DNA from: an uncultured bacterium
GTDB lineage: Bacteria; Bacillota_I; Bacilli_A; RFN20; CAG-826
Assembly: GCA_949284685.1 (NCBI GenBank)
Contig: CASDWE010000003.1
Span: 52,870-116,869, forward strand
Direction of reading: 5' to 3'
DNA length: 64,000 nucleotides
The notes beneath the pieces were generated by a model. The model saw nothing but the letters and a program-made list of their open reading frames with translations. It ran no database searches and had not been told where the DNA came from. This document shows positions 21,707 to 60,961 of this stretch, in pieces. The position numbers and the translations under genes are program-made. Position 1 is the first letter of the stretch. Every line of letters starts with the position of its first letter.

Positions 21707-21913
21707 GCACTAAAATTAATTATTTTTTATGGACCATTTTGGTGTGTAAATATTACATAAAAACTTTAAAAAATAATAAAGTAGGGGATTTTTTGATATT
21801 TTCATAATAAATCAATAATAATTATTTTTACAGTCAACGTAAAAGTTAGACCTATAGTAATTAAATTTTATTATTTTTAAAATGTGGATTAATTATTAAC
21901 ATATGCAACATCT

Positions 21914-21940
21914 ACTAAATATCTACTAATTTGTTACTAA
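21914..21940 (+). repeat. Triple ACTAA array with 11-bp period (site A)
   Basis: ACTAAatatct ACTAAtttgtt ACTAA. Confidence 0.75.
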
Positions 21941-21942
21941 AA

Positions 21943-22680
21943 TCACATCCAAGATATTTTTCTTTCATTGCCATTTTTAATTCGTATGATGTTGTCTTTA
22001 TGACGAATAATTAACACTATCATAGCAAGTGTCATAACTAATGCAAATACCCATCCTGGACATAACGTATTACCATACATTGCAATCAAATCAAAATTAG
22101 GAATACAAGTTAACCAGCTTGCTATTGCAGCAACGATTGAACCTATAATGGAACTTAAAGAAATATATTTTTTAATTTTCAGTGTAACAAAAAAAGTAAT
22201 AATTGATGTTATTCCTACAAACCAAGATGAAAATAGTGCACTTGAAAAAGTTATCGCTGCAGCTTTCCCGCCTTGGAATTTTGCAAATATCGGATAACAA
22301 TGACCAATAACCGCACTTATAATAATCAGCCAATATATTGGCCATTTGATTAGATAATTATCAGTGTTTCCACTAATCATCATTTCAGCGGTTGGGATTA
22401 GCGGTATATTATCAAACATATTAACGTAAGTTAATATAGCCCAAACTGACCAAAGTGGAATCGCCAATTTTATGAAATCTAAAATATAAACGATGATTCC
22501 ATATTTGAATCCCCATAATCTAGATGCATTCGTGCCACCAGAATTTTTAGAGCCAAAATGTCGTGGATCTTGTTTGAATAACAATTTACCAACTATAACG
22601 CCGCTTGGAATTGAGCCAAACAAATAGCCAATTATTATGATGATAACCGAACAAATTATGTTTACTGCAATCTCATTCAT
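21943..22680 (-). CDS. plsY: Glycerol-3-phosphate acyltransferase PlsY
   Basis: YLFGSIP, GSKNSGGTN, GH.YPIF..FQGGK, RHKDNI.R; divergent from parE. Confidence 0.95.
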   Translation of the reverse strand: MNEIAVNIICSVIIIIIGYLFGSIPSGVIVGKLLFKQDPRHFGSKNSGGTNASRLWGFKYGIIVYILDFIKLAIPLWSVWAILTYVNMFDNIPLIPTAEMMISGNTDNYLIKWPIYWLIIISAVIGHCYPIFAKFQGGKAAAITFSSALFSSWFVGITSIITFFVTLKIKKYISLSSIIGSIVAAIASWLTCIPNFDLIAMYGNTLCPGWVFALVMTLAMIVLIIRHKDNIIRIKNGNERKISWM

Positions 22681-22767
22681 AGGTTTATAAAATTCTTTTT
22701 TATTTTACTAAAAATAAATATAAATTCAATTTATTTTTGTGTATAATATGAAAGGGTATACAAAATA

Positions 22768-24711
22768 ATGGCTGAAAATATCGATAAAATTAGTTATGCC
22801 GCTGATGACATTGAGTTATTGCGAGGTTTAGAAGCGGTTAGAAAAAGACCAGGCATGTATATAGGAAGTACAAACTCAAGTGGTCTTCATCATTTGGTTT
22901 GGGAAATTGTTGATAACTCGATTGATGAAGCGATGTCTGGCTTTGGCAATAAAATTAGTATAACTATCCACAAAGATGGTTCAATTACTATCAGCGATGA
23001 AGGGCGTGGAATTCCTACGGGAATTCAAAGTCAAACACATAAACCGGCAATTGAATTAGTATTTGGTGAACTTCACGCTGGAGGAAAGTTCAATAATTCT
23101 TCTTATAAAAGTGCAGCTGGTTTACATGGTGTTGGTGCTAGTGTTACCAATGCTTTAAGCAGTTGGCTTGATGTTATAGTCCATCGTGAAGGAAAAATTT
23201 TTCATATTCGTTATAAAGATGGTGGAAAAATTGATATTCCTCTTGAAGTAATTGGAACAACAAATAAGCATGGTACGACAGTAACATTCAAACCAGATCC
23301 AACTATATTTTCAACTGTGGAATTTAAATGGGACACAATATATAATCATTTACAAGAATCAGCGTTTTTATTAAGAAAAGTTCACTTTTATTTAAAAGAC
23401 GAACGTTCAAATTTAAATCAAGAATTTTATTATGAAGATGGTTTAAAAGAATACATTCTCACTGTTAATCAAAACAAAAGACCGCTGACAGATATTATTT
23501 ATTTTAATGGCAACGTCTCTGATATTGAAATTGAAATCGCTATGCAATATTGTTATAGCGATTATAACGAAACTATTTTTTCTTATGCTAATAATGTTAG
23601 AACAAGAGATGGTGGAACTCATGAAACAGGTTTTAAACTTGGCGTGACGCGTGCTGTTAACGAATTTATTGATAATAACAAATTAGCGAAAGGCAAAAAA
23701 TTAGAAGGTAGCGATATTAGAGAAGGATTAACTAGCGTTATTTCTTTAAAAATTCCTGAAAAAAAATTAGAATTTGAAGGACAAACAAAATCTAAGTTAG
23801 GTACTCCAGAAGCTACCAGTGCAGTTAGTAACTTTATTTATGAAAAATTTTCTTACTATCTAACTGAAAATAAAGAAATCGCATTAAATATTATTTCTAA
23901 ATGCATTGATTCGTATAACACTCGTCTTGCTGCTAGAAAAGCAAAAGAAGAAGCTCGAAGTAATAAAAAAGTTAAACAAGAAATTATTTTATCCGATAAA
24001 TTAACTCCTGCCCAAAGCAAAGACTATTTAAAAAATGAATTATTTATCGTCGAGGGTGATTCTGCCGGTGGTACTGCAAAAAAAGGAAGAGATAGAATTC
24101 ATCAGGCGATTCTTCCACTTCGTGGAAAACCTTTAAATACTGATTCCATTACCGTAGAAAAATTATTACAAAATGAGGAATTTGCAACAATTATCAATAC
24201 CATAGGTGCGGGTTTTGGACAATCTTTTGATATTGATGATATTAAATACGGAAAAATTATTATCATGACTGATGCTGATACTGATGGTGCACATATTCAA
24301 ACCTTGCTTTTAACATTTTTTTATAATTATATGCGAAGTTTAATTACTACTGGTCATGTTTATGTTGCTGCACCTCCTTTGTATCGAGTCTATAAAGAAG
24401 AAAAAAATCATAAAGTAAACGAAAAATATGCTTGGAATGATCAAGATTTGGAAAAAGCTAAAAAAGCAATAGGACCAGGATATAAAATTAACCGATATAA
24501 AGGTCTTGGCGAAATGAATGAAGTTCAATTAAAAAAGACGACGATGGATCCTGCTTCTCGTTTATTAATTCAAGTACGAATCGATGATCCTTTATTTGTT
24601 GAAAAACAAGTTGGCATTTTAATGGGAAAAGACACTTCCAATCGTCGACGCTGGGTAGAAGAAAACGTTGATTTTAATAAAGTTGATACATTTATTAATG
24701 AGGTCAAATAA
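22768..24711 (+). CDS. parE: DNA topoisomerase IV subunit B
   Basis: EAVRKRPGMYIGS, VEGDSAGG, PLRGK, DADTDG; plsY-parE-parC synteny near terminus. Confidence 0.9.
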   Translation: MAENIDKISYAADDIELLRGLEAVRKRPGMYIGSTNSSGLHHLVWEIVDNSIDEAMSGFGNKISITIHKDGSITISDEGRGIPTGIQSQTHKPAIELVFGELHAGGKFNNSSYKSAAGLHGVGASVTNALSSWLDVIVHREGKIFHIRYKDGGKIDIPLEVIGTTNKHGTTVTFKPDPTIFSTVEFKWDTIYNHLQESAFLLRKVHFYLKDERSNLNQEFYYEDGLKEYILTVNQNKRPLTDIIYFNGNVSDIEIEIAMQYCYSDYNETIFSYANNVRTRDGGTHETGFKLGVTRAVNEFIDNNKLAKGKKLEGSDIREGLTSVISLKIPEKKLEFEGQTKSKLGTPEATSAVSNFIYEKFSYYLTENKEIALNIISKCIDSYNTRLAARKAKEEARSNKKVKQEIILSDKLTPAQSKDYLKNELFIVEGDSAGGTAKKGRDRIHQAILPLRGKPLNTDSITVEKLLQNEEFATIINTIGAGFGQSFDIDDIKYGKIIIMTDADTDGAHIQTLLLTFFYNYMRSLITTGHVYVAAPPLYRVYKEEKNHKVNEKYAWNDQDLEKAKKAIGPGYKINRYKGLGEMNEVQLKKTTMDPASRLLIQVRIDDPLFVEKQVGILMGKDTSNRRRWVEENVDFNKVDTFINEVK

Positions 24712-27318
24712 ATGGCTAAGAAGACAAAAAAAGAAGAAGTAGAAATCAAAGAAAATATATCGAGTGAACCATTAGAAGAGGTTATGGCTGATCGTTATGC
24801 CACATACGCTAAATATGTCATACAAGATCGTGCTATTCCAGATGTTAGAGATGGTTTAAAACCAGTTCAAAGACGTATTTTGTTTGCTATGTATAATAAT
24901 GGCAATACTTTTAATAGACCAACTAGAAAATGTGCTCATAGCGTTGGCGAAGTTATGGGTAAATACCATCCACATGGTGATACATCAATTTATGAAGCTC
25001 TTGCCCGTATGAGTCAAGATTGGAAAGTGCGAGCTCCTTTAATAGATTTTCAAGGAAATAATGGTAGTATCGATGGCGATTCTCCAGCCGCGTATCGTTA
25101 TACCGAAGCAAGACTAAGTCAACTTGCTAATGAAATGTTAAAAGATATTGATAAAAATACTGTTGATATGCAATTAACATTTGATGATAGTGAATTTGAG
25201 CCTACTGTTTTACCTGCCCGTTTTCCAAATTTATATGTTAATGGCAGTGAAGGTATTGCTGTTGCTTTAGCAACAGAAATTCCAACACACAATTTGCGTG
25301 AAGTTATTAATGCGACAATTTATCGTATTAATCATCCAAATTGTTCATTAGATGATTTATTAAATATAATTCCTGGACCAGATTTTCCTACAGGTGGAAT
25401 TATATACAATAGTGATGGGCTTAGATCTATTTATGAAAATGGACGTGGAAGAATAGAAATAGCTGCTCGTTATCAAATTGTCGATAATGGTTCTATTAAA
25501 CAAATAGTTATTAATGAAGTTCCTTATAAAGTAGTTAAAAAGAATATCGTTTATGAAATTGATAAAATTCGCCACTCCAAATCAATAGATGGAATTATTG
25601 AAGTGCGAGATGAAAGCGATTTTAATGGTATACGAATTGTTGTTGATGTTAGAAAAAATGCACCAGTCGATTTAATTGTTTCGTATTTGTTAAACAAAAC
25701 TTCCATGAAAGTTTCATATAGTGCAAATATCGTAGCAATTGTTGATGGCCGTCCAAAAACACTATCATTAACTGATTATCTTGATGCTTACATTTCTCAT
25801 CAAGTAGATGTTTTAACCCGCTTATTGAAATTTGAATTAGATAAATTATCTGCTCGATTACACATAGTTGAAGGTTTGATTTTAGCAGCTTTAAATATTA
25901 ATGATGTTGTTGAAATAATTCGCCATAGTAAAGATAAACAAGACAGTAAATTAAATATTATTGCCAAATATGATTTATCTAACGAACAGGCTGAAGCTAT
26001 CGTTATGATGCCTCTATATAAGTTAAGTCACACTGATATTGAGACTTTACAAAACGAAAAGGAACAATTAATTAATGATATAAATTATCACAAAGAAACT
26101 TTAGCGGATCCTAAAAAAATTAACAAGGCTATTATCAACGATTTAAATCAAATTAGCAAAACATATGGTGACGCTAGAAGAACAAGTTTTGAAGACAAAG
26201 TTGAACAAGGTCCAATCGATAAGAGATTTTTAATTAGTAAAGAAAAAATATATTTTTCTATTACAAAGGATGGATATTTTAAACGTTCAAGTCAAAAATC
26301 GTATTTATCTTCGTTAGAAAAAAATCCTTATCCTGAAGTCAAACAAGGTGATGCACTAATTGCGATTGATTGTGCTTACACAACCGATTTCCTTCTTTGT
26401 TTTACGAATTTAGGAAATTATATGTACGTACCTATTTTTGAAATCGAAGATAATAAATGGAAAGATAAAGGTGTTCATATTAATTCACTTATAACTATGA
26501 ATGGAAATGAAAAAATTGTCTCTGTAATAGTCGCAGATAAATTAAGAGATGATTTATTTACAATATTATTAACTAAAAATGGTCAAATTAAGCGTACACC
26601 AACTAATTTTTATCAAACAAATGTCAGAGCAAGACCAATCAAATGTATTAAGTTAGCAAATGGTGATGAACTTGTTGATGTTAAATTATCTACTGGAAAT
26701 GCAAATATTATGGTATTTTCTAGTCTTGGATATTATGCAATGTTTAATGAAAACGAATTGCTACCATTATCTTTAAAAGCTTCTGGTGCTAAAGCAATGT
26801 CATTAAAAGGTGGACAATCCGCGGTTGATTTGGTTATTTCTCAATTGGAAGAAAAAACCAAAATAGTTTTAATTACAGATAAATCATGCTTAAGAATTTT
26901 TGATACTAGCCGTGGGGTAGTTTCAAATCGTTTAAGCAAGAATCAAATTGTTTTTAAATCATTTAAAAGCGACATTCATCATTTAGTCTACGCTCATAAA
27001 GTTATTTTAGATGATAAAGACAATATGAATGTGTTACTATATGATAACAATTACGATTCGAAAGAACTCACAATTGATGATTTCCATTTGACTGATATTG
27101 AAAAATATGCCAAGAAAAACATTGATTTAATGTTAGTAAAAGAAAGAATTAGACATGTTTTTGCTAAAGGATGCGATTACATTAATGATGAAATCAAATC
27201 CCAACCAATCATTCTTAAAAAAGACATTTCAAATTTAGAAAAAGAAGAAATGCAAGAAAATAATGATGAAAGCAAATCCAATGTTGAACAAATTACTTTA
27301 TTTGATGATTTTGAATAA
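24712..27318 (+). CDS. parC: DNA topoisomerase IV subunit A
   Basis: DVRDGLKPVQRR, HPHGD, catalytic RYTEARL. Confidence 0.9.
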   Translation: MAKKTKKEEVEIKENISSEPLEEVMADRYATYAKYVIQDRAIPDVRDGLKPVQRRILFAMYNNGNTFNRPTRKCAHSVGEVMGKYHPHGDTSIYEALARMSQDWKVRAPLIDFQGNNGSIDGDSPAAYRYTEARLSQLANEMLKDIDKNTVDMQLTFDDSEFEPTVLPARFPNLYVNGSEGIAVALATEIPTHNLREVINATIYRINHPNCSLDDLLNIIPGPDFPTGGIIYNSDGLRSIYENGRGRIEIAARYQIVDNGSIKQIVINEVPYKVVKKNIVYEIDKIRHSKSIDGIIEVRDESDFNGIRIVVDVRKNAPVDLIVSYLLNKTSMKVSYSANIVAIVDGRPKTLSLTDYLDAYISHQVDVLTRLLKFELDKLSARLHIVEGLILAALNINDVVEIIRHSKDKQDSKLNIIAKYDLSNEQAEAIVMMPLYKLSHTDIETLQNEKEQLINDINYHKETLADPKKINKAIINDLNQISKTYGDARRTSFEDKVEQGPIDKRFLISKEKIYFSITKDGYFKRSSQKSYLSSLEKNPYPEVKQGDALIAIDCAYTTDFLLCFTNLGNYMYVPIFEIEDNKWKDKGVHINSLITMNGNEKIVSVIVADKLRDDLFTILLTKNGQIKRTPTNFYQTNVRARPIKCIKLANGDELVDVKLSTGNANIMVFSSLGYYAMFNENELLPLSLKASGAKAMSLKGGQSAVDLVISQLEEKTKIVLITDKSCLRIFDTSRGVVSNRLSKNQIVFKSFKSDIHHLVYAHKVILDDKDNMNVLLYDNNYDSKELTIDDFHLTDIEKYAKKNIDLMLVKERIRHVFAKGCDYINDEIKSQPIILKKDISNLEKEEMQENNDESKSNVEQITLFDDFE

Positions 27319-27323
27319 ATATT

Positions 27324-27842
27324 ATGAATATTAATAAATACATTCCAACTTATTATCACGCATCAATATTTGAATTAAATCCAAATGATATAATCAAAAA
27401 AGGATATAAAATTGTGTTTTCTGACTTAGATAACACCTTAGATTGCTATATTGATAAAATTCCTTCTAAAATAGTTTTTGATAAAGTTAAAGAGTTTAAA
27501 GAAGCCGGCATCAAATTTATTATAATTAGCAACAATTATAAAAGAAGGGTAAAACCATACGCTGATAAATTAGGTTTACAATGCGTATGGTTATTATTAA
27601 AACCATTAAAGTTTCGTCTTAACCATTTTATTAAGAAAAATAATATCAATAAGAAAGAAGTATTGATGATTGGGGACCAACTATTTACTGATATCGCGTT
27701 GGCTAATAAGTTAGGTATCGATAGCATATTAGTGAAACCTTTAACTGATAAAGATCAAAAATTTACTTCTTTTAGAAGAAAAAAAGAAAAATTATACTTT
27801 AAAAAAATTAAAAAAGAAAATAAACTCAAATTGTGGAGGTAA
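27324..27842 (+). CDS. yqeG: YqeG family HAD IIIA phosphatase
   Basis: DLDNTL, SNN, IGDQLFTD. Confidence 0.92.
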   Translation: MNINKYIPTYYHASIFELNPNDIIKKGYKIVFSDLDNTLDCYIDKIPSKIVFDKVKEFKEAGIKFIIISNNYKRRVKPYADKLGLQCVWLLLKPLKFRLNHFIKKNNINKKEVLMIGDQLFTDIALANKLGIDSILVKPLTDKDQKFTSFRRKKEKLYFKKIKKENKLKLWR

Positions 27843-27851
27843 TAAAATAAT

Positions 27852-28988
27852 ATGGGAAAATTATCGCGCGTCTTACGCTGCAACAATTGTGGTGAAATAT
27901 TACAAAGTAATGATAAAACAAAATCAGGCTACATACCAAAACTAGATTTTACCAATGAAACTGATCGAGTTTTATATTGCGAATCTTGTTACCAAAAAAA
28001 GATGGTTAATAGGGGATTTCTAGCAAAAGAAATCGATGATGATTCATACACAATTTTAAAAAAAGCCGCTATTGAGCATTGCTTAATTGTTTATGTTATC
28101 GATACGTTTGCTTTTAATGGAATAATTAAGTCACAACTTATAGAATTAATCAAAGATTTACCAATTTTAATTGTCGCAAATAAAAAAGACTTGTTTTTAG
28201 AAAAAGATAGTAATAATACATTAAAATCGTTTATTTATGATCGTTTTAAAGAATTAAATATCGTTCCAAAAGAAATTATTTTAGTGAGTGCAAATAAAAA
28301 TTATCAAATCGATCTTGTTAAGACAAAAATAGAAGAATATCGAAATCAAAAAGATGTTTATTTTATTGGTGAAAGAGCAAGTGGAAAAACCGCAATCATC
28401 AATTGTTTATTAAAAAACTACAAAAATAATACAACACGAAATATTACCTCATTTTTATATCCAAACACTAATAGTAAACTATTAACAATACCATTAGATG
28501 AAAACACTAATTTATATGAATTACCAGGATTTAACCTTGATGATTCTTGCTTAGGACTAGTTGAAAAAAATATCGCAAATAAATATTTAAGTTTAAAAAC
28601 GCCTGTAAAAGCAAAGAAAATTAAACTTTTAGAAGGCCAGTGCTTAGTTTTTGGCGGGCTTGCTATGATAGGATTGCATCAAGGAAAATCTTTAGAATTT
28701 AAAGCATATTTTAATGATAAAATCGAAACAAAAAAGATGGGATTAGATAAAGAAAGAGTCTTTTTTAAGACAAATTTATTAAAAAAAGATTTAAGACCTG
28801 TCAGCGATTTATTAATGGATTTTGATAATTATGATTTATTCCAATATAAGATGGAAAATGATAATAAATTGCACGAAATAGCAATAAAAGGTTTAGGATT
28901 TATTACATTTATAGCGAAAGGTCAAATCATATATATTATGGCTCCAAAAGGTGTTGGAATTAAGGAAGGAACTCCTAGAGTAATATAA
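27852..28988 (+). CDS. yqeH: YqeH-like circularly permuted GTPase (degenerate motifs)
   Basis: CxxCG..CxxC zinc finger, NKKD, GERASGKT; yqeG-yqeH-yhbY-nadD synteny. Confidence 0.82.
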   Translation: MGKLSRVLRCNNCGEILQSNDKTKSGYIPKLDFTNETDRVLYCESCYQKKMVNRGFLAKEIDDDSYTILKKAAIEHCLIVYVIDTFAFNGIIKSQLIELIKDLPILIVANKKDLFLEKDSNNTLKSFIYDRFKELNIVPKEIILVSANKNYQIDLVKTKIEEYRNQKDVYFIGERASGKTAIINCLLKNYKNNTTRNITSFLYPNTNSKLLTIPLDENTNLYELPGFNLDDSCLGLVEKNIANKYLSLKTPVKAKKIKLLEGQCLVFGGLAMIGLHQGKSLEFKAYFNDKIETKKMGLDKERVFFKTNLLKKDLRPVSDLLMDFDNYDLFQYKMENDNKLHEIAIKGLGFITFIAKGQIIYIMAPKGVGIKEGTPRVI

Positions 28989-28993
28989 ATATT

Positions 28994-29284
28994 ATGTTAA
29001 CCAATGATAATAAAAGACATTTAAAATCATTATCCAATCAAATAAAATTACGATATCAAATTGGCAAAAACGGATTAACAAAAACTAGTTTTGATTTATT
29101 TGATAAAGCTTTAACCGCACACGAATTAATTAAAATAGATGTTTTAAAATCATATTCTAATCCAATTAATGAATTAGCGTTTGATTTATCTAGTAAATTA
29201 AACGCTGATATTGTCAGTATTGTCGGGCGCGTTATTTGTCTTTATCGTTATTCTGAAAAAAATGGAGTAAAACATATTTTATGA
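28994..29284 (+). CDS. yhbY: YhbY/CRM RNA-binding protein
   Basis: QIGKNG, HELIKI, IVGRV..LYR. Confidence 0.92.
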   Translation: MLTNDNKRHLKSLSNQIKLRYQIGKNGLTKTSFDLFDKALTAHELIKIDVLKSYSNPINELAFDLSSKLNADIVSIVGRVICLYRYSEKNGVKHIL

Positions 29285-30384
29285 TAAAAAATATCGTCCT
29301 ATTTGGTGGATCTTTTGACCCAATTCATAACGGACATATTAACATGGCTATAAAAGCTCAACAGTTTTTAGGTGGAATAAATAATTGTAAAGTAATTTTT
29401 TTGCCAAATCGTGTCAGTGTTTGGAAAGAAGAAAGCGTCGATGCAAATGACAAGCTAAACATGATTAAATTAGCAATAAAAGATTATGTTAACCTGGATG
29501 TTGATGATTTCGAATTAAATTCACAAACAGAAAATTATACATATTTATCAATTCAACACTTTATGAATATTTATAAAAATGAAAAAATTAAACTTTATTT
29601 TTTAATTGGAAGCGATCAGGTTGAATTGTTTCACTTATGGAAAAATGCTAAAGAAATATCAAAGCTTGTACAACTTATATATTATCCACGTCCTAATTTT
29701 AAATTTACAAACGATAATATTAATAAATTTAAAATAATCAAAGTAAGTGGTGATGAATTAGTGGATGTTTCAAGCAATTCCATTCGCGATTTAAATAATT
29801 TAGACATCCCAGATGTGGTTTTAAATTATATAAATAATCATGATTTATATTTTTTAAGAAAAATTGCTAAATATATCGATAACAAAAGATATTTGCATAG
29901 CAAGTCAGTTGCAATGCTTGCAAAACAAATAGCGGTTTCAAATAATATTGAAAGGCCATGGCGATATTATATAGCTGGCATTTTGCATGATGTTGGAAAA
30001 AATGTTTCAGAAAGTCAACAAAAGAAAATCGAAAACGAATATAAAGAATATATGCCAATGTCATATAAACTATATCATCAATTCAATAGTGCTTATATCG
30101 CACATGACGATTTTAAAATAACCGATGAAGATATTTTATTTGCCATAAGATATCATGCGACAGGGAATAAGAATATGTCGTTATTAGCAATGACAGTTTA
30201 CGCTGCGGATAAAATCGATCCATTAAGAGGATATGATTCTAGTGATATGATTAATAAAATGAAATCAAATATCATTGAAGGATTCAAATACGTATTAGGG
30301 CAAAATAAAGAATATTTAATGAGTAAAAATTCTAATATTGATAACATATTAACCAAACAATGTTTTGAATGTTATCTAAATTGA
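29281..30384 (+). CDS. nadD: Nicotinate-nucleotide adenylyltransferase fused to YqeK-like HD domain
   Basis: GGSFDPIHNGH, VSSNSIR; C-terminal RYLHS..LHDVGK..YHATG..ADKI. Confidence 0.92.
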   Translation: MIKNIVLFGGSFDPIHNGHINMAIKAQQFLGGINNCKVIFLPNRVSVWKEESVDANDKLNMIKLAIKDYVNLDVDDFELNSQTENYTYLSIQHFMNIYKNEKIKLYFLIGSDQVELFHLWKNAKEISKLVQLIYYPRPNFKFTNDNINKFKIIKVSGDELVDVSSNSIRDLNNLDIPDVVLNYINNHDLYFLRKIAKYIDNKRYLHSKSVAMLAKQIAVSNNIERPWRYYIAGILHDVGKNVSESQQKKIENEYKEYMPMSYKLYHQFNSAYIAHDDFKITDEDILFAIRYHATGNKNMSLLAMTVYAADKIDPLRGYDSSDMINKMKSNIIEGFKYVLGQNKEYLMSKNSNIDNILTKQCFECYLN

Positions 30385-30404
30385 TTTTTTTAATTTATAT
30401 AACA

Positions 30405-30432
30405 ACTTCGCATAATGACTATTATGTAAACC
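30405..30432 (+). other. dif chromosome dimer resolution site
   Basis: ACTTCGCATAA-TGACTA-TTATGTAAACC, 11-6-11 layout resembling Firmicutes dif; lies exactly where gene orientation switches. Confidence 0.92.
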
Positions 30433-30526
30433 AAATATTATATTATTTAGGCTAGAACCACATTAATTATGTATTAATAATAATTTAAATTACATACATT
30501 TAAAAGATTTCCACATTTTAATTTTA

Positions 30527-30553
30527 ACTAAATAACTACTAAATAACTACTAA
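30527..30553 (+). repeat. Triple ACTAA array with 11-bp period (site B)
   Basis: ACTAAataact ACTAAataact ACTAA. Confidence 0.8.
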
Positions 30554-31096
30554 TTACAACGCTCCATTTATGATTAAAAAATAGTAATTGCGTAAAATTA
30601 AATCGACTTTTTCTTTAGATAAATAAAGACGATCGTTTTCATGCTGCGGACCATTTATTACTTGTTTTGTATAAAGTCTTAATTTATCAATCGTTCTGAT
30701 TTGATTTATGACCGCTAAAGTTTGCTGACCATCTTTTAATCCTTTGACTTCTCCGATATTTATGTCACTTCTTGGATGCGGTCCAAAACGATTTGTTTTT
30801 AAAGGACATACTATTACTAATGGATTATGTATACCAGAATCTGCTAATACAACTCCGTAGTGACGATTTGAAAATTCTGCATTAACATTTATTCCCCAAT
30901 CAAATTCATAAATTTCACCTTTCTTTAAATTATACTTAACACTATGATTTAACGAATAAATAGAATATTCTAATTGCCTTTTTATCCATTCTACTTGTCC
31001 TAGAAGCTTTTTAAATGCCTCGTTTTTTTCTTGTGTTAAATTTGTTGTTTGAAAATTCATTTCTTTTTTAAAATTTAATTCATTTTGTTCAATCAT
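30554..31096 (-). CDS. PemK/MazF-like family protein, no adjacent antitoxin
   Basis: KGEIYEFDWGINVNAEFSNRHYGVVL, VIVCPL, NQIRTIDKLRL. Confidence 0.78.
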   Translation of the reverse strand: MIEQNELNFKKEMNFQTTNLTQEKNEAFKKLLGQVEWIKRQLEYSIYSLNHSVKYNLKKGEIYEFDWGINVNAEFSNRHYGVVLADSGIHNPLVIVCPLKTNRFGPHPRSDINIGEVKGLKDGQQTLAVINQIRTIDKLRLYTKQVINGPQHENDRLYLSKEKVDLILRNYYFLIINGAL

Positions 31097-31107
31097 AAAA
31101 AACCTCC

Positions 31108-31143
31108 TAATTACTAATAGGAGGAAATTTTTAATATTGCTAA
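31108..31143 (-). promoter_or_regulatory. Shared motif TTAG-N19-CTATTAGTAATTA, copy 2
   Basis: Minus strand reads aaaaaaaTTAGcaatattaaaaatttcctcCTATTAGTAATTAggagg before the PemK-like ATG. Confidence 0.6.
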
Positions 31144-31148
31144 TTTTT

Positions 31149-32884: not shown

Positions 32885-32894
32885 AATACCTTCT

Positions 32895-34106: not shown

Positions 34107-34161
34107 TTTTTACCTCCGTATTTATAATAGTGAATTTCATCTATATATTCTATGAATATGC

Positions 34162-35043: not shown

Positions 35044-36229
35044 TGTCTTTCTCCTTTATAGCGTCTATAGCTCTAAATAACATTGGCTTTGATAAATGCC
35101 GATTTAATTCATTAATGAGCAATTTTGTTTGTGATTGTTTAATACCTTCTTCGTAATCATAAAAAGTCATTTGAACAGCAACATCTTTAATATCGACAAA
35201 ATGAGAAACACCAACTCCAATTAGTCTTATTAAACGATTGTCATAAAATTTGTCCAGTAGATCTAAACAAACATCAAAAATAGTATCTTCATCACTAATT
35301 GGCTTATCTAATGTAATTGATTTACTTTTGCTAATAAAATCAGTATCTTTGATGACTAATGTAATTGTTTTTGCTAATTTATTTTCTTTTTTTAATCGAT
35401 AGGTAACATCTTTTGATAAATTTTTAATAACGCTCCTCATTTCCATATACTCATTTGTGTCATATTTTAAAGTAGTCGATGTTTGAATTGATTTTGGATT
35501 TCTTTCCTCATCAAAATTAATTTCGTCATCACCTTCGCCATTAAGCCATTTTTCGATTGTAAAATAAAATTTACCCAAAATATTTCTGACATCTTCATCA
35601 TTATTTTTTATTTTATTTGCTAAATCTCCAATAGTTTGTATCCCTAAATCAATAAGTCTTGGTGACGTTTTCCTTCCTATGCCATACATAGAAGATAAAT
35701 CTAATGGATAAATAATATTTCTAAAATCTTTTTTTCTTAAAATAGTAATTCCATTTGGCTTTTTATAATCAGAACCCATTTTGGCAAGAAATTTGTTTGT
35801 CGATACCCCAATTGAACAATATAATTTAGTTTTATCATATAATTTCTTTTGAAAATTTTTAAAAAAATCAATCGGATTTTTAACATCTTTTAAAACATCG
35901 CTAAAATCAGCGTAACATTCATCAATTGATGCCACTTCTACTTTTTTGGTATATGATTTAACATACAAGATAAACTCTCGCGACATCAAACTATAAAAAT
36001 CAAAATCAGCAGGTTTAATAATTAAATCTGGACATAAAGTTGTTGCTTGAAACATCGGCATACCGCTTCGCACACCATATTTTCTCGCGGCATAAGAACA
36101 CGTAGATACGATTCCAGCACGTCCTTGATGACCAACCGCGACCGGTTTATTAATTAAAGTAGGATCTTTGATTTCTTCACAACGGACAAAGAAATAATTT
36201 AAATCAATATGAACAATAATTTTTGCCAT
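35018..36229 (-). CDS. dinB: DNA polymerase IV
   Basis: HIDLNYFF, SYAARKYGV, SIDECY, KPNG. Confidence 0.95.
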   Translation of the reverse strand: MAKIIVHIDLNYFFVRCEEIKDPTLINKPVAVGHQGRAGIVSTCSYAARKYGVRSGMPMFQATTLCPDLIIKPADFDFYSLMSREFILYVKSYTKKVEVASIDECYADFSDVLKDVKNPIDFFKNFQKKLYDKTKLYCSIGVSTNKFLAKMGSDYKKPNGITILRKKDFRNIIYPLDLSSMYGIGRKTSPRLIDLGIQTIGDLANKIKNNDEDVRNILGKFYFTIEKWLNGEGDDEINFDEERNPKSIQTSTTLKYDTNEYMEMRSVIKNLSKDVTYRLKKENKLAKTITLVIKDTDFISKSKSITLDKPISDEDTIFDVCLDLLDKFYDNRLIRLIGVGVSHFVDIKDVAVQMTFYDYEEGIKQSQTKLLINELNRHLSKPMLFRAIDAIKEKDNGHKRRNR

Positions 36230-36245
36230 GTTTAGATTATATCAT

Positions 36246-36257
36246 ATTATGTTAACC
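36246..36257 (+). promoter_or_regulatory. XerD-arm-like site in the dinB-xerD promoter region
   Basis: ATTATGTTAACC; extended identity to the dif right arm and flank; next to minus-strand TGATATAAT extended -10. Confidence 0.6.
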
Positions 36258-36262
36258 AAATG

Positions 36263-38119
36263 TTATTTTTTTACTAAATAATCAAAAACATTATTTGGTA
36301 AGATATTTGATATTTCCAATTGTTCTTTAAATGCCATGTGCGGATAATAAAAATCATCGATGGCAAAAATTTTAATAATTCCTTTATAATTATTTTCAAT
36401 TAATAAATTTTCTAAATGAAGTGCAAATCCTGATTTATTAGCGTAAGGATCATAAATAACAATTTCATTATACTTAAGCAATTGGTTAACATAATCTTTA
36501 TGTATTGGTTTTAAATAGCAAGCATCATAATAATCAATGCTTAAATTGTTATCCTTAATTAATTTGAATAATTCATAACCCAAATTACCAACTCCAATAA
36601 CGCAAATTCTTGAATCTGAATTCAAATTTAATAAGTGCCAATCTAAAAAATTGGTTTTTGGATATTTTAAAATATCATTTGCTTCATCTTTTGGATAGCG
36701 AATGACAAACAAGCCATGATTGTTGATTGATTCTTTTAATAAATCAAGGCAAGTTTTCTTATTATTTGCCATTGTAATAACAGAATTTGGTAAATCATAA
36801 ATAAAAGATTCATCAAAACTTCCTTGATGAGTTTCACCATCAAAACCACCAGTACCAGCACGATCCACTAATAAAGTAATATTAACATTCATTCTAGCAA
36901 TATCGTGATTTAATTGATCGTATGCTCTTTGTAAAAATGTAGAATACATCGAAACAATTGGATGAAATCCTTCCAAAGCTAATCCTAAAGCCATCGTTAT
37001 AGCGTGTTCTTCACAAATTCCAACATCAAATGTTCTATTTGGAAAATCTTCATATATTTTTTCTAAACAAGATCCTTTCATTGTCGCTGGTGTTATCAAG
37101 ACAATTTTTTCATTATCTTTCATTAATTGGTAAACTCCATCGGCGTATACTTTTGAATAAGTTTCGTTATTTGAAACAAAAAGAGGTTTTCCAGTAGAAA
37201 TATTAAATGGTTCGACACCATGCCATGAACCAGAATTATCAATTTCACTATATTTATATCCTTTTCCTTTTTTTGTCTTAAGGTGAACCACACAAGGTTT
37301 GTTCATTTTTTTGGCCTTTTTAAATATTTTTTCCATTTTTTTAATATTATGGCCATCGCATGGACCAAAATATTTTAATGATAAATTATCAAAAATGGTT
37401 GATGGAATAAGCATTTTGGCAATTTTATTTTTAATAGCCGAAGTAAAAATATAAATCTTTTTACCTACTTTTGTTTTTTGCATAAACGTTTTATAGCGTG
37501 TCTTAGCACTCATATAGGAAGTGGAATTAGAAATTTTCCTAAATAAATTGCCGAGTCCGCCTATTGATTTTGAAATAGACATTTCATTATCGTTTAATAC
37601 AATAATCAATTTATGCTGATTGAAAGATAAATTATTTAAACCTTCAAACGCTAATCCATTTGCAATACTCGCATCGCCAATAAAAGCGATAATGTTATAA
37701 TCTTCTTTTTTTAAATCTCGTCCAATGGCCATACCATAGGCAGCGCTTATTGATGTTGAAGAATGCCCTGCTTCAAAAACATCATATTTAGATTCGCTTC
37801 GTTTTTGAAAACCGCTTACACCATCCTTATGGCGTAGATTAGATAAATCTCTACCTGTTAATATTTTATATGTATAGCTTTGATGTCCAACATCAAATAA
37901 TATTTTGTCTTTATTAAAATCAAAAACGCGACATAATGCAATGCTTACATCAATTACTCCCAAATTGCTGGAAAGATGGCCACCATTTTTTGCTACAGTT
38001 TCTATGATATATTGTGTGATTTTATCTTTAAGAAGTAAAATTTCATCATACGTTAATTCTTTAACAAAATTTGGATTTGTAATTTTTGATATATCAATGT
38101 TGTGAATTTCTTTTTTCAT
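36263..38119 (-). CDS. dxs: 1-deoxy-D-xylulose-5-phosphate synthase
   Basis: GGHLSSNLG, DVGHQSY, GHSSTSIS, GDA..LNDN, YSTFLQRAYDQ. Confidence 0.97.
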   Translation of the reverse strand: MKKEIHNIDISKITNPNFVKELTYDEILLLKDKITQYIIETVAKNGGHLSSNLGVIDVSIALCRVFDFNKDKILFDVGHQSYTYKILTGRDLSNLRHKDGVSGFQKRSESKYDVFEAGHSSTSISAAYGMAIGRDLKKEDYNIIAFIGDASIANGLAFEGLNNLSFNQHKLIIVLNDNEMSISKSIGGLGNLFRKISNSTSYMSAKTRYKTFMQKTKVGKKIYIFTSAIKNKIAKMLIPSTIFDNLSLKYFGPCDGHNIKKMEKIFKKAKKMNKPCVVHLKTKKGKGYKYSEIDNSGSWHGVEPFNISTGKPLFVSNNETYSKVYADGVYQLMKDNEKIVLITPATMKGSCLEKIYEDFPNRTFDVGICEEHAITMALGLALEGFHPIVSMYSTFLQRAYDQLNHDIARMNVNITLLVDRAGTGGFDGETHQGSFDESFIYDLPNSVITMANNKKTCLDLLKESINNHGLFVIRYPKDEANDILKYPKTNFLDWHLLNLNSDSRICVIGVGNLGYELFKLIKDNNLSIDYYDACYLKPIHKDYVNQLLKYNEIVIYDPYANKSGFALHLENLLIENNYKGIIKIFAIDDFYYPHMAFKEQLEISNILPNNVFDYLVKK

Positions 38120-38146
38120 ACTAAAAATTAACTAAATTTCCACTAA
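38120..38146 (+). repeat. Triple ACTAA array with 11-bp period (site C), filling the whole xseB-dxs gap
   Basis: ACTAAaaatta ACTAAatttcc ACTAA. Confidence 0.75.
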
Positions 38147-38335
38147 TTACTCAATTATTTTCTCTATTTTCTCTTTTACATTTTTTAAAGCATCCTGAAT
38201 GTTGTCGATGATAATTTTAGCGTCTTCATATAATTTAATGCTCTCATCGATGCTTGTATTTTCATCGTTAATTTTCTCTAATATTTCTTTTAATTTATTC
38301 AACGATTGCTCAAAATCAATATTTTTATTTTCCAT
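38147..38335 (-). CDS. xseB: Exodeoxyribonuclease VII small subunit
   Basis: FEQSL..L..I....SIDESIKLYE; follows xseA. Confidence 0.92.
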   Translation of the reverse strand: MENKNIDFEQSLNKLKEILEKINDENTSIDESIKLYEDAKIIIDNIQDALKNVKEKIEKIIE

Positions 38336-39476
38336 TTTTTATTACCTCCAAAATAGTGCTTTTGATTGTACCGTCACTTATTGTAGTAAAAATTATATCA
38401 CCTTTATTAACGTCTCCACATGATTTAACTACACTTTTTTTATCTTCTTTTCGCGTTAATGAATATCCTCTTTTTAATATATTTAAGGGATTTAAATCAT
38501 TTAAACGATTATTATATAGTTCAATTTGCTTTATTAAATTTTCCAATTTAATTTTTATACTTTTGTGTAAATTATCTTTTAGATAATTGTAATCCGTCAT
38601 AAAACTATTCAATTTGTTTTTAATTTGATTTTTCATTTCATTTTCATAACTATTACAAATTTGTTTTATTTCTCTTATATCGATAGTTGCTAATTCAGCG
38701 GCGCCTGTAGGTGTTGACGCTCTTTTATCAGCGATATAATCGATTAAAGTCAAATCTATTTCGTGTCCAACGGCACTTATAATAGGACATTTGCTATTTG
38801 ATAATGCAATTATTAGCGTTTCATCATTGAAAGCACTTAAATCTTCACTTGATCCACCGCCACGTCCAATAATTAAAGTATCAATATCGTATTCTTGCGA
38901 CTTAAAATATGCTTTTAATATTTCTTTAGCGGCCCCATCACCTTGAACTTGACAAGGGAAAACATAAATATCACAAAACGGATATCTTCGTTTTAAATTA
39001 ACAATAATATCTTTTAAAGCTGCACTATTTTTAGCGCTTATCACACCAATTGCTTTTGGAAATATATTTATTGGGCGCTTTCTTTTTTCATCAAACAGCC
39101 CCATTTTATATAATTTTTGTTTTAATTCTTCAAATTGCAATAGCTTGTTTCCCAGTCCTTGATTTATAACATTATATACTTTTAATGAATAACTTCCCCG
39201 ACCAGTAAAAACACTAATTGCACCATATAAAATAACTTTATCACCAGTTTTAATCTCAAATTTTAATTTTTGATAATTGTTTTTAAATAATACACAGTTT
39301 ATTGATGCATTTTTTTCGACGTCTAACAAAGAAAAATAATAAACGCCATTGCTGGCTAATTTAAAATTGCTTACTTCGCCTTGAACAAGTATAGATTGTA
39401 AATTTTCATCTTCTTCTAAGCGTGATTTTATATAATCATTTAATTGACTAACACTAGGTATATCAGCATAATCCAT
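38325..39476 (-). CDS. xseA: Exodeoxyribonuclease VII large subunit
   Basis: GEVSNF, RGGGS.EDL, SAVGHE.D, TPTGAAE. Confidence 0.97.
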   Translation of the reverse strand: MDYADIPSVSQLNDYIKSRLEEDENLQSILVQGEVSNFKLASNGVYYFSLLDVEKNASINCVLFKNNYQKLKFEIKTGDKVILYGAISVFTGRGSYSLKVYNVINQGLGNKLLQFEELKQKLYKMGLFDEKRKRPINIFPKAIGVISAKNSAALKDIIVNLKRRYPFCDIYVFPCQVQGDGAAKEILKAYFKSQEYDIDTLIIGRGGGSSEDLSAFNDETLIIALSNSKCPIISAVGHEIDLTLIDYIADKRASTPTGAAELATIDIREIKQICNSYENEMKNQIKNKLNSFMTDYNYLKDNLHKSIKIKLENLIKQIELYNNRLNDLNPLNILKRGYSLTRKEDKKSVVKSCGDVNKGDIIFTTISDGTIKSTILEVIKNGK

Positions 39477-39889
39477 TATAAAAGATTCTCCAATATTCCA
39501 TTTACAAAGCGATAATTATTTTTATCTAAAAAAGTTTTAGCTTGTTTAATAGCAACATTTATAATTATTTTACGATCGGTTTTTTCAATATAATGATAAT
39601 GTGCATACGCTAAAAAAAGAATAGCTTGCATGATTTTAGAAAGTCGATTAAAAGACCAATCTCTTAAATATTTTGTAATATTTTCTTTAATTTCATCTTT
39701 ATGTGCAATCGCACTTACCACTACACGCCTAACATAAAGGTCAACCTCATCAAAAGGTTCATCCAAGTTATCACTTATTAATTCTTTGATATCATATTTT
39801 AAATTCATTTCATCATAGCAAAGACATTGATAAATTATAATCATTGCAATATTTTGAGCTTTATTTCTTGTCATCAACATTTTCTTCAA
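39476..39889 (-). CDS. nusB: Transcription antitermination factor NusB
   Basis: DWSFNRL, IIINVAI..AK, FVNGIL; asp23..nusB-xseA synteny; real start may be a few codons downstream. Confidence 0.85.
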   Translation of the reverse strand: MKKMLMTRNKAQNIAMIIIYQCLCYDEMNLKYDIKELISDNLDEPFDEVDLYVRRVVVSAIAHKDEIKENITKYLRDWSFNRLSKIMQAILFLAYAHYHYIEKTDRKIIINVAIKQAKTFLDKNNYRFVNGILENLL

Positions 39890-40538
39890 CCTTTGTTATT
39901 TTATCACTTTCAGCGGTGTTTTGCTTATAAATTTTTTCAATTGCGAAAAGATGATAATATTCATAAATAGAAATTATTAAAAAGAACCAAATTATTACAT
40001 GTAAACCGAGCATTATCCAAAGATATTCGCTAGCTTCGCCTATTAAGTAACACGCTACAATCATAATTGTATCAACTAAATAAAAAATAATTTGTCCATA
40101 AAAAGCAATCTTTTTGCCCTGACTAGCGTAAATTCCAGCTAAAATCGCTAAGGAAGAAAAAATAAGACTAATGGCCATGATTATGACAATAAACCAAACA
40201 AAATCTAAAGATGGATCTCCTAAACGATAAAAAGTAAGCATTTCAAAAATGCGAAACAAAAATGAATTGCTAGAAAAACAAAATGCATATTGATAAGTTG
40301 AAAAACTTAAACTATTTCCTAATAGTGTTCCTTCAATAAAAGTTGCAGGTGAAATTTGTTGAGTCGCATTTTGTATTAAACCAATCATCAAACCAAAAAT
40401 ATTAAAAACACCTGCCCAAATCATTATCCGTGAAGATTTTTGATAAGAACGCAAAGCTTTATTATGAGCTTGAGCGTAGGTCAGAACTTTTTTACTTTTC
40501 TTTTTTTTGACTTGCTTTTTGCTCATTTGTCTTTTCAA
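39861..40538 (-). CDS. Hypothetical multi-pass membrane protein
   Basis: Basic N-terminus, about 4 hydrophobic helices. Confidence 0.65.
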   Translation of the reverse strand: MKRQMSKKQVKKKKSKKVLTYAQAHNKALRSYQKSSRIMIWAGVFNIFGLMIGLIQNATQQISPATFIEGTLLGNSLSFSTYQYAFCFSSNSFLFRIFEMLTFYRLGDPSLDFVWFIVIIMAISLIFSSLAILAGIYASQGKKIAFYGQIIFYLVDTIMIVACYLIGEASEYLWIMLGLHVIIWFFLIISIYEYYHLFAIEKIYKQNTAESDKITKVEENVDDKK

Positions 40539-40863
40539 TTTTTATTTCAATATCAAAAGGAACTTGCTCAGTAGCTTCATTTAACGCTAAATGAATTTCT
40601 TTTTCTAATAATTGTTTTACTTCATCTTTATCGACGTTTGAATTTATTTCAATCGCTAACCAAACATGAACAACGCCATTTCTAATTGTTATTTTAATTG
40701 GTCTATTTAGACGAAAACGTTGATCTTTTTTTAATTGTCGACTACTTTTTGCAACTCCTGGCACATTTAAAATAGCTTCATTTACAAGATTTTCAAAAGC
40801 TAAATATGAAATGCCAATTTTTCCTTTATTTGTTAAGTTATCTATAAAAACATAATCCGCCAT
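40492..40863 (-). CDS. Asp23/Gls24 family protein
   Basis: GKIGIS..AFE.LV..A...VPGV; position upstream of nusB. Confidence 0.75.
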   Translation of the reverse strand: MADYVFIDNLTNKGKIGISYLAFENLVNEAILNVPGVAKSSRQLKKDQRFRLNRPIKITIRNGVVHVWLAIEINSNVDKDEVKQLLEKEIHLALNEATEQVPFDIEIKIEKTNEQKASQKKEK

Positions 40864-40916
40864 AAGTAAACCTCAGTTTAATTATTATATTTAAACACAA
40901 AAATTTCCACAACTAA

Positions 40917-42902
40917 TTAATTCTTAATTAATTCTAATAGTTGATTCAAAACACTTTCTTTGTCAAATTTAAAGTGTTTTATAGCATCTGATGCTGGTGC
41001 ACTAGTGCCAAATGTATCGATTCCAATATTGTGTTTTGCAAATTTTGACCAACCAAATGTTGATAGCATTTCAATAGATACTCTTTTATCGTATGGAAGA
41101 GATAAAATTTCATCTTGATAAGTTTTATCTTGTCTTAAGAATATTTCTTGTGATGGCATTGATACAACACGAATATCGATTCCTTTTTCTTTTAACATGG
41201 TTTTAAGTTCAATTGCTAATGAAACTTCACTACCTGTCGCTATTAAGATTAAATCAGCTTTATTTTCTTCTTTTGCAACAACATAAGCACCTTTTTTAAC
41301 ACCATCAAGAGATGTTGTTTTCAAATTCGGTAAGTTTTGACGCGACAAAATAATTGCTGTTGGACGGTCTAATGATTTTAATCCAAGATACCAAGCAGCA
41401 TAAGTTTCCATTTCATCGCAAGGTCTAATGACATCTAAATTAGGAATACTACGTAACATCGCTAGATGTTCGATTGGCTGATGGGTAGGACCATCTTCAC
41501 CAACTGCAATACTATCATGCGAAAACAAATAAATAACTGGCAAATGAGATAATGCCGCTGTTCTAATAGCGGATTTCATATAATCAGAAAATACTAAGAA
41601 GCATCCAATATAAACTCTTAATCCATGATGTAACATTATTCCATTAGCAGCACTGGCCATTAAAAATTCACGAATACCCCAGTTTATATTATGTCCGCTT
41701 CGATTAGATGGAGTAAAATCAGTTCCACCATTTATCTTAGTTATAACACTTCCAGCAACATCAGCGCTTCCTCCAATAAGATTTGGAATAGAAAGAATAT
41801 AGTCATTTAAAGCTTTGCCAGATGCATTACGTGTGGAAATTGAACTCCCTATTTCAATATCTGGCATAACATCGCTTAAATATTTGCTGACGTCATTTTT
41901 AATTAAGTTAGTAAAACGTAAAGCATCTTTTTTATTGTGTTTAGCATATGAATCAAATTCTTTTTTATATTCTTCATAAGCTTTCGTTCCACGTTTAATA
42001 AAGCTGTCGGCGAAATTTTTATAAACTTCTTCAGGAATAAAAAATGGTTCATAATCGTAATGATATATTTCTTTTTTAGCGTAATTTCCATCTTCTTCTC
42101 CTAATGGAGATCCATGAACTTTACTTGTTCCTTGTTTTTTAGAACCATAACCTATTATCGTTTTTACAATAATTAATGTTGGTTTATCTTTTGATAATTT
42201 AGCTTGCTTAATAGCGTTATCAATTGCGATGATATCATTACCGTCTTCAACTTTTAAAACGTTCCATTCGCTAGCTAAAAAACGATTTTCAACTGATTCA
42301 GAAAACGACATTTCTAATCCACCATCAAGGGTAACATCATTTGAATCATAAAATAAAATTAATTTATTTAATTTTTGATGGCCAGCAAAAGAAATTGCTT
42401 CTTGTGAGAGTCCTTCTTGAAGACAACCATCACCGCATAAACAATATGTATAGTGATTAATTAATGTCTTTCCGTCTTCATATTGGGCTTGTAGCGACTG
42501 TTCAGCAAGTGCAACACCGACGGCTTGAGCAATTCCTTGACCTAAAGGTCCGCTTGTGGCATCAACTCCAGCTGTATGACCATATTCAGGATGCCCAGGA
42601 GTTAAACTATTCAATTGACGAAAAGATTTAAGATCATCAATAGTTAATCCATAACCGCACAAATGCAACATTGTATATAACAAACTAGAAGCATGTCCAG
42701 CACTTAAAATAAAACGATCGCGATTAATCCAATTTGGATGGTTAGGATCGGCTATTAAATGATTTTTAAATAAAGTATAGACAATAGGTGCAGAACCTAG
42801 AGCCATTCCAGGATGTCCGCTTTTTGCCTTGTTAATTACATCGATACACGTTGATCTAATTGCTGCTATTGATAGTTCATCAATTTTCATTCTTTCTGCC
42901 AT
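40917..42902 (-). CDS. tkt: Transketolase
   Basis: SGHPG, TPGHPE, GPLGQG, GDGCLQEG, GEDGPTHQPIE. Confidence 0.98.
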   Translation of the reverse strand: MAERMKIDELSIAAIRSTCIDVINKAKSGHPGMALGSAPIVYTLFKNHLIADPNHPNWINRDRFILSAGHASSLLYTMLHLCGYGLTIDDLKSFRQLNSLTPGHPEYGHTAGVDATSGPLGQGIAQAVGVALAEQSLQAQYEDGKTLINHYTYCLCGDGCLQEGLSQEAISFAGHQKLNKLILFYDSNDVTLDGGLEMSFSESVENRFLASEWNVLKVEDGNDIIAIDNAIKQAKLSKDKPTLIIVKTIIGYGSKKQGTSKVHGSPLGEEDGNYAKKEIYHYDYEPFFIPEEVYKNFADSFIKRGTKAYEEYKKEFDSYAKHNKKDALRFTNLIKNDVSKYLSDVMPDIEIGSSISTRNASGKALNDYILSIPNLIGGSADVAGSVITKINGGTDFTPSNRSGHNINWGIREFLMASAANGIMLHHGLRVYIGCFLVFSDYMKSAIRTAALSHLPVIYLFSHDSIAVGEDGPTHQPIEHLAMLRSIPNLDVIRPCDEMETYAAWYLGLKSLDRPTAIILSRQNLPNLKTTSLDGVKKGAYVVAKEENKADLILIATGSEVSLAIELKTMLKEKGIDIRVVSMPSQEIFLRQDKTYQDEILSLPYDKRVSIEMLSTFGWSKFAKHNIGIDTFGTSAPASDAIKHFKFDKESVLNQLLELIKN

Positions 42903-42914
42903 TTTTAAATCTCC

Positions 42915-42941
42915 TTAGTAATTATTTAGTATATATTTAGT
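42915..42941 (-). repeat. Triple ACTAA array with 11-bp period (site D, inverted)
   Basis: Minus strand ACTAAatatat ACTAAataatt ACTAA. Confidence 0.72.
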
Positions 42942-57050: not shown

Positions 57051-57075
57051 AAATGTCCTCCTTTTTTTAAACTAA

Positions 57076-57152
57076 TGACTCGCTTTCAAGGTATAATGCA
57101 TAGCATTAATTTATAACCTTTTTAAGGCGGTTGTAGCCAAATATAGGCGACA
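57076..57152 (-). ncRNA. L21 leader-like cis-regulatory RNA
   Basis: 5' UTR of rplU containing GCTACAACCGC...GCGAGTC elements typical of the L21 leader; boundaries approximate. Confidence 0.65.
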
Positions 57153-60920: not shown

Positions 60921-60961
60921 ATTAAATTATACTTAAAAATCAAATTCTTACAATAAATAAT

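Follow-up and report, generated by a model that had tools for sequence, protein, structure and literature searches.

We analysed a 64,000-bp stretch of contig CASDWE010000003.1 (assembly GCA_949284685.1, positions 52,870 to 116,869) from an uncultured bacterium of the Bacilli, and refer to this whole stretch as the window. It carries four arrays of three ACTAA units, repeated at an exact 11-bp period (ACTAA-N6-ACTAA-N6-ACTAA) and lying between genes on both sides of dif, the XerC/XerD site of the replication terminus. Our observations support the view that these arrays are under selection, conserved within a lineage and tied to the terminus. As to their role, we give about an even chance to the reading that they are docking platforms for a putative sequence-specific protein, which would mark the terminus domain as matS, Ter or XDS sites do. 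That a protein occupies the arrays, and what it does there, we infer from the sequence. The arrays and their landmarks are, in window coordinates:

Array A, 21914..21940, plus strand: three ACTAA units, 2 bp past the plsY stop and 8.5 kb left of dif.
dif, 30405..30432, plus strand: 28-bp XerC/XerD site, ACTTCGCATAA-TGACTA-TTATGTAAACC.
DnaA-box-like 9-mer ATTTCCACA, 30507..30515, plus strand: between dif and array B, 76 bp past the dif match and 11 bp ahead of the array.
Array B, 30527..30553, plus strand: three units on the XerD-arm side of dif, abutting the stop of a 180-residue PemK-like open reading frame (ORF).
Array C, 38120..38146, plus strand: three units that make up the entire 27-bp gap from the xseB stop to the dxs ATG, 7.7 kb right of dif.
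Array D, 42915..42941, minus strand: three units between the aspS stop and the tkt ribosome-binding site, 12.5 kb right of dif and in the opposite orientation.

These four arrays had been described in an earlier note on the same DNA, and a pattern search of the window gave exactly these four. Reading of the sequence and its ORFs bore out the contexts given there as well, namely gene ends, the neighbourhood of dif, the whole xseB-dxs gap and the inversion of array D. Array B starts 94 bp past the 28-bp dif, the TAA stop of aspS is part of the first unit of array D, and the 19-mer common to arrays A and B is identical at 18/19 positions, as claimed. The estimate of far less than one chance copy per window also held, with 0 matches in 100 dinucleotide-preserving shuffles vs 4 observed. 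In the whole assembly of this genome (G000; 1.11 Mb, 96% complete), the exact arrays number five, all of them inside 64 kb of the 157-kb terminus contig C3; the fifth, array E, lies outside the window at C3:138622, 55 kb from dif. The probability that five uniformly placed sites occupy so small a span is about 5e-5, and this genome-wide search agrees with the expectation of the earlier note that the arrays would not be spread evenly round the chromosome. If partial arrays (two units or one mismatch) are counted, the set reaches some 63 kb to the left of dif and 55 kb to the right, or about 10% of the genome. Pairs of ACTAA at 11 bp follow the same contig, with 13 on C3, 1 on C2 and 0 on C1, and the assembly holds 0 ACTAA triples at spacings of 5-24 bp other than 11. 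When all 5-mers were considered as triples at periods of 9-13, ACTAA/TACTA was the sole complex word recurring at period 11 both here and in the array-rich relative G022, and the same test gave no comparable word in the array-free G028.

The sign of the GC skew changes at about window position 30000, and the cumulative skew reaches its maximum at 85 kb of contig C3, with dif at 83.3 kb; the flip and the peak at dif therefore place the replication terminus here. The XerC and XerD arms of this dif are those that we presume by analogy with E. coli dif. Most relatives contain a dif matching the pattern TTCGYATAAT-N4-ATTATGTWAA, with one exact match per genome. Both such a dif and exact arrays occur in 18 genomes, whose arrays (59 in total) divide into 42 on the contig with dif and 17 on contigs without it. 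All except one of the former (41/42) lie at most 70 kb from dif. In G022, the skew maximum at 185 kb coincides with dif and has arrays on either side. Terminus markers of the matS type are motifs limited to the terminus domain whose density rises toward dif, and the same holds for these arrays.

Exact arrays were found in 24 of 41 genomes (relatives with this genome included), amounting to 74 matches vs 3 for a reversed control pattern. Across the order, 123 of the 251 genomes that are at least 90% complete have arrays, all in three families, with 5 matches for the control. By family, the counts are 94/172 in f1, 7/30 in f3, 21/24 in f7 and 0/24 in five other families. In the rest of the class (263 genomes, many of them equally AT-rich and small), only two genomes had one match each, as compared to 17 matches of the control pattern. 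The spread within one lineage together with background counts outside it therefore points to a lineage-specific selected element and not to a by-product of base composition. The earlier note had set retention at orthologous gaps of relatives as a test, and there the units are indeed kept while the spacers drift. An array follows the plsY stop in 10 genomes, and the xseB-dxs gap holds one in seven (G000, G001, G006, G008, G013, G018 and G022), with differing spacers. Orthologues of array D are present in G001, G005, G006 and G043, and, besides this aspS-tkt gap, arrays recur at the orthologous ftsL-ftsA, lepA, rpmA-obg and ispG-nfo gaps.

The structure of the unit is equally well defined. Among the 59 distinct arrays, each of the four bases after a unit is G or C in just 0-3 cases, the base preceding the second and third units is T in 48/59 and 45/59, respectively, and the base one further upstream is often C. 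The unit can thus be written as yT-ACTAA-WWWW, mostly three in a row and sometimes four, and the flanks of the arrays carry no conserved information. By inspection, three ACTAA units at 11 bp put a TAA into every frame of one strand and a TAG into every frame of the other. Since ACTAA contains TAA and its complement TAG, and 11 mod 3 is 2, an array of three units leaves none of the six frames open; arrays can therefore lie only between genes, which in a tightly packed genome mostly means gene ends. This closure explains why the arrays are intergenic, but not why they are restricted to the terminus. One could go further and regard the arrays as six-frame stop insulators, or as low-complexity tandem duplications (array B is a 2.5-copy tandem 11-mer), with no protein involved at all. 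This we find barely credible in view of the terminus restriction, the invariant units with drifting spacers and the absence of arrays from equally AT-rich genomes of the class. An RNA element was considered and rejected: neither Rfam families nor tRNAs were found at the arrays, and the RNA fold z-scores there, from -0.11 to +1.5, give no fold signal.

One array, that beside dif, is coupled to it by fixed geometry. When 21 dif loci were aligned in dif orientation, the only conserved islands were dif itself, a DnaA-box-like 9-mer on the same strand (TTATCCACA, TTTTCCACA or ATTTCCACA) and the array. At least two array units are found at the same place and in the same orientation in 20/21 loci. 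The box was detected by script in 17/21 loci and by eye in G006; G026, G030 and the array-free G031 have none. As a background, a comparable box occurs in 92/5877 random 100-bp windows of those loci. The distance from dif to the box ranges from 64 to 98 bp in steps of about 11 bp, with clusters at 76-77, 86-89 and 98 bp, and that from the box to the first unit is 10-11, 20-22 or 31-32 bp, which modulo 11 falls in {9, 10, 0} for 15/16 distinct genomes. In other words, the module consists of dif, about eight helical turns, the DnaA box, one to three turns and the array. Phase-locking over variable and unconserved spacers is a signature of proteins that would touch on one face of the DNA, and the phasing appears to tie the array to dif and to DnaA, or whatever else may read the box. 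In families f3 and f7 (G026, G030 and G036; loci L046, L047 and L049), mirror-image arrays stand on both sides of dif, 120-310 bp away. The dif of the array-free G028 sits in a tiny convergent gap without box or array. Outside the order, the dif and DnaA-box geometry was seen in 7/263 genomes, some of these cases clearly coding, vs about 6 for the control, and is not general at this spacing.

Given this module, the arrays might be regarded solely as accessories of Xer recombination: the dif-side array and the DnaA box would shape or control the XerCD synapse, and the distant arrays would be by-products. The locked distances and the orientation fixed in 20/21 loci suit such a role, and xerD lies 4 kb from dif in conserved synteny. 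The accessory sequences of the plasmid sites cer and psi (bound by PepA, ArgR and ArcA) are likewise putative counterparts in that they hold protein-binding DNA at a fixed, phase-sensitive distance from an Xer core site, a likeness that extends to array B only. They stand, however, on the XerC side and are known only at the site itself, whereas our module is on the XerD-arm side of a chromosomal dif and has sister arrays tens of kilobases off. Conservation at orthologous gaps extends to arrays as far as 55-68 kb from dif, which makes an exclusively accessory function distinctly unlikely in our estimate. Of the Xer accessory role suggested in the earlier note, what stands is its plausibility for the dif-side copy, phase-locked to dif and to the DnaA box in 15/16 distinct genomes; it does not extend to the conserved arrays 3-68 kb from dif.

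The presence of the box also raises the possibility that DnaA itself reads the arrays, with the strong box nucleating a DnaA filament on the 11-bp-phased units to form a terminus site comparable to datA or DARS. Low-affinity arrays in E. coli oriC resemble such an arrangement. The period is the same, the box is in helical phase with the array, and the box beside dif is identical to the oriC boxes of this genome, where ATTTCCACA is present three times upstream of dnaA. However, this oriC region has no array and most arrays have no box. By inspection, the units match the box at 5-6/9 positions, their best alignment is shifted by 3 bp from the phase of the box, and the invariant AA would land in the spacer between sites. 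Known DnaA-box clusters (datA, DARS, DBC) can be compared with the single box beside dif in 17-18/21 loci. DnaA, present as a single copy in this genome, is thus unlikely as the reader of the array units, and we regard the filament explanation as very improbable.

Orientation bears on a further rival, according to which the arrays are Ter-like fork barriers: a contrahelicase-type protein would pause forks so that they meet at dif, as RTP does at Ter in B. subtilis. The number of sites and their share of the chromosome are similar, the nine ter sites in the dif region of B. subtilis together spanning about 10% of its chromosome (excerpt of PMC13220808). The Ter consensus, as given in an excerpt of PMC3317982, also contains ACTAA and ACYAA in direct order with a TACYAAAT core that resembles our unit. 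However, in that consensus ACTAA and ACYAA are 16 bp apart within a site of about 30 bp that has overlapping A and B half-sites, an architecture that three or four units with an 11-bp period do not match, and this genome has no RTP-family match. As for polarity, most arrays right of dif carry ACTAA on the dif strand and most of those left of dif carry it on the other strand, as in a trap. The innermost arrays are the clearest in this respect, being in the plus orientation right of dif in 20/21 loci, with a mirror-image left array in G026, G030 and G036. By contrast, the outer conserved arrays of the A and D types point against trap geometry, and orientation flips between genera at orthologous gaps: at ftsL-ftsA and lepA, the array of this genome is inverted relative to that of G022. 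The proper orientation is found in about 9/13 arrays of these two genomes, roughly two thirds. In E. coli and B. subtilis, the known traps consist of strictly opposed, fully polar groups of sites (excerpts of PMC10331603 and PMC13220808). Because polarity is only partial here, we prefer a terminus marker indifferent to orientation over a polar fork trap, and the classical fork trap envisaged in the earlier note is not upheld. We consider fork barriers unlikely, yet they stay a live rival since the innermost arrays are mirror-symmetric about dif and the Ter consensus of B. subtilis has the ACTAA/TACYAAAT core.

Arrays at gene ends and operon starts might instead be operators or roadblocks of a transcription regulator that merely happen to lie near the terminus. 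Arrays C, D and E are directly upstream of dxs, tkt and ftsA, respectively, many arrays abut the stops of genes without intrinsic terminators, and direct repeats of 10-11 bp are typical of MraZ and OmpR-type regulators. On the other hand, arrays A and B both lie between convergent genes, where there is no promoter to control, the flanking genes share no common pathway, and a regulon offers no reason for terminus restriction across three families. The two regulator types can also be addressed directly. The MraZ boxes of this genome, which are outside the window at C3 ~140420-140450 and run into the mraZ start codon, consist of GTGGTA three times at 10 bp and differ from the array unit, so MraZ boxes were rejected as the identity of the arrays. 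Operators of the OmpR/PhoB type were set aside likewise, with no Trans_reg_C match in this genome. Altogether, we rate ordinary regulation as improbable.

Compared with known systems, the arrays most readily recall terminus markers. A matS site is a single 13-bp palindrome read by MatP in enterobacteria and their relatives. Both matS sites and the arrays are short, multi-copy, confined to the terminus and denser toward dif, but the arrays are three or four direct repeats at 11 bp instead of a palindrome, and one of them is coupled geometrically to dif and a DnaA box. XDS sites, which resemble the XerD arm of dif, are likewise Firmicute sites of the terminus region and are linked there to XerD and SMC unloading; the arrays match the XerD arm of dif at only 5/11 positions by inspection. 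An excerpt of PMC10945525 describes the density of matS as rising toward dif, with several copies and no need of polarity, and XDS sites in the B. subtilis terminus region as acting on chromosome organisation and not on recombination. Ter/RTP, again a Firmicute system, differs from the arrays in period, number of units and degree of polarity, and its protein RTP has no match in this genome. With respect to repeat structure, the closest parallels are MraZ boxes and the 11-bp iterons of parC that are bound by ParR. Like the arrays, these consist of at least three short direct repeats spaced by one helical turn, which in those systems are bound by oligomers; they differ in unit and location, and this genome has no RHH_1 or AbrB-type match and only an ordinary soj-spo0J pair as partition genes. 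The FapR operator was rejected because fapO is a 17-bp inverted repeat (excerpt of PMC12281612) and the arrays are direct. A literature search over titles and the openings of abstracts found nothing on such arrays.

The reading of the arrays as docking sites for a terminus protein, proposed in the earlier note, is the best supported one as far as terminus-tied, conserved and selected elements are concerned; on the side of the protein, no binder was found among the families searched. Several observations weigh against it. Array G022:C1:681046 is 497 kb from dif and 34 kb from the skew minimum, that is, on the origin side; it adjoins an ABC transporter and a lipoprotein gene. Distances to dif cover 42/59 arrays, the other 17 being on contigs without dif. 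Synteny of the terminus is conserved across the family, hence the co-location with dif is partly inherited and the observations are not independent, although despite this shared synteny the sequence between the units has diverged freely. Many arrays begin 0-10 bp from a stop codon, and plsY and the PemK-like ORF lack an intrinsic terminator, which could indicate a role at transcript ends. Furthermore, searches of this genome for domains that might bind the arrays gave little. RTP (Pfam PF02334) had 0 matches at E<=10, while the control genome set for that search gave a match for B. subtilis. The Tn916 Int-N domain (PF02920) had no match at E<=10, and none was found for Trans_reg_C (the OmpR-type winged helix), RHH_1 or AbrB/MazE domains; the search for arm-binding or winged-helix domains recommended in the earlier note thus gave no match for Int-N or Trans_reg_C. 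FapR had merely weak matches confined to the helix-turn-helix (HTH), namely a Fic-HTH protein and a DeoR-type rhamnose regulator.

The proposed likeness to the Tn916 arm repeat DR2, a similar 11-mer of the AGTAGT type according to that note, fared no better. Arm sites of the Tn916 type were rejected, there being no Int-N domain, just two tyrosine recombinases, both Xer-sized (frames of 297 and 314 residues), and arrays in conserved housekeeping gaps, not at element ends. Other DNA-binding candidates were dismissed on grounds of their own. A membrane protein accompanies the PadR protein, which even the sister genome G001 lacks, the MerR protein adjoins an alcohol dehydrogenase, soj-spo0J is an ordinary pair, and the TetR protein, the Fic-like protein and others have ordinary explanations. 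The PemK-like ORF next to dif and array B (window 30554-31096, minus strand) encodes an orphan protein of 180 residues with a PemK/MazF-like domain and a 57-residue helical N-terminal extension, and has homologues beside dif in 12/21 dif loci. It was rejected as the binder, having no match in G022 yet being present in the array-free G031. A search for a MazE/AbrB-type antitoxin domain anywhere in this genome found none.

We also compared the ORFs of this genome with the whole of the array-rich G022 and of the array-free G028. This subtraction left 117 ORFs found in the former and not in the latter, mostly enzymes, lipoproteins and artefacts of rRNA overlap, with few soluble unknowns. The best candidate is an orphan family of 261 residues without a Pfam match, encoded at G000:C1:7133-7918 (minus strand), outside the window. 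Its presence is concordant with arrays in 34/41 genomes and confined to the array families and f6. The gene is often near arrays or dif, being near arrays in G012, G016, G019 and G022. A further point against the protein side of our reading belongs here: the family was not found, profile search included, in the array-bearing G009, G021, G023 and G030. The predicted structure is of high confidence (pLDDT 93.9) and resembles no solved fold, with no Foldseek match at E<=0.001 and a best VIA Z of 4.3. We regard this family as no more than a weak lead. It is equally possible that a conserved protein has changed its specificity and become the binder, a case that subtraction would not reveal.

As regards the surroundings, the neighbours of the arrays are housekeeping genes in conserved synteny, and the gene content is Firmicute-like (yneF, plsY, parE-parC, the yqeG-yqeH-yhbY-nadD/yqeK operon, deoB, xerD, dinB, dxs, xseBA, a T-box and an L21 leader). 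The T-box leader at window 60731-60923 and the ribosomal L21 leader at 57065-57142 (minus strand) both exceed their Rfam gathering scores. The dxs gene has no Shine-Dalgarno sequence, and around it (window 38117-38149) the array spans the whole xseB-dxs gap, as it does in six further genera. A GTCAACGTAAAA-like motif lies some 95 bp ahead of the plsY-end array, at window ~21828-21840, and is conserved at orthologous places in six to eight genomes. Several plsY-end spacers of relatives contain DnaA-box-like 9-mers in either orientation.

Returning to the docking platforms, we envisage that the putative protein would dock cooperatively on three or four yTACTAA half-sites, which the 11-bp register and four G/C-free spacer bases would present on one helix face. 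Such a protein would be restricted to a single clade of gut Bacilli with small genomes, made up of three families of the order. The arrays mark about 10% of the chromosome centred on dif, more densely toward dif, and once bound there, the protein would make the terminus a domain of its own. Possible ways of doing so are to exclude or unload SMC, to hold or position sister termini, or to present dif to XerCD and FtsK. The dif-side array and the DnaA box would then form a nucleoprotein module of fixed geometry on the XerD-arm side. It is tempting to speculate further that the protein polymerises on the 11-bp-phased TACTAA arrays over a terminus domain of about 100 kb and is physically coupled at dif to DnaA and XerCD. 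This bolder version is tentative and, in our judgement, rather doubtful. If true, it would provide a direct molecular link of the replication initiator with chromosome dimer resolution or termination, in a lineage without an RTP match.

Terminus-specific cis-elements are known in very few bacteria, namely matS, Tus-Ter, RTP-Ter and XDS. For most species there is no known fork trap, according to an excerpt of PMC10331603. Here, an entire clade of uncultured gut bacteria has its terminus marked by a sharply defined new family of sites in helical phase with dif and a DnaA box. In practical terms, the arrays offer a clean bait for pull-down or DNA affinity purification sequencing (DAP-seq). Knowing the binder would show how the terminus is organised or completed in minimal Firmicute chromosomes, and could reveal an unexpected role of DnaA beside dif.

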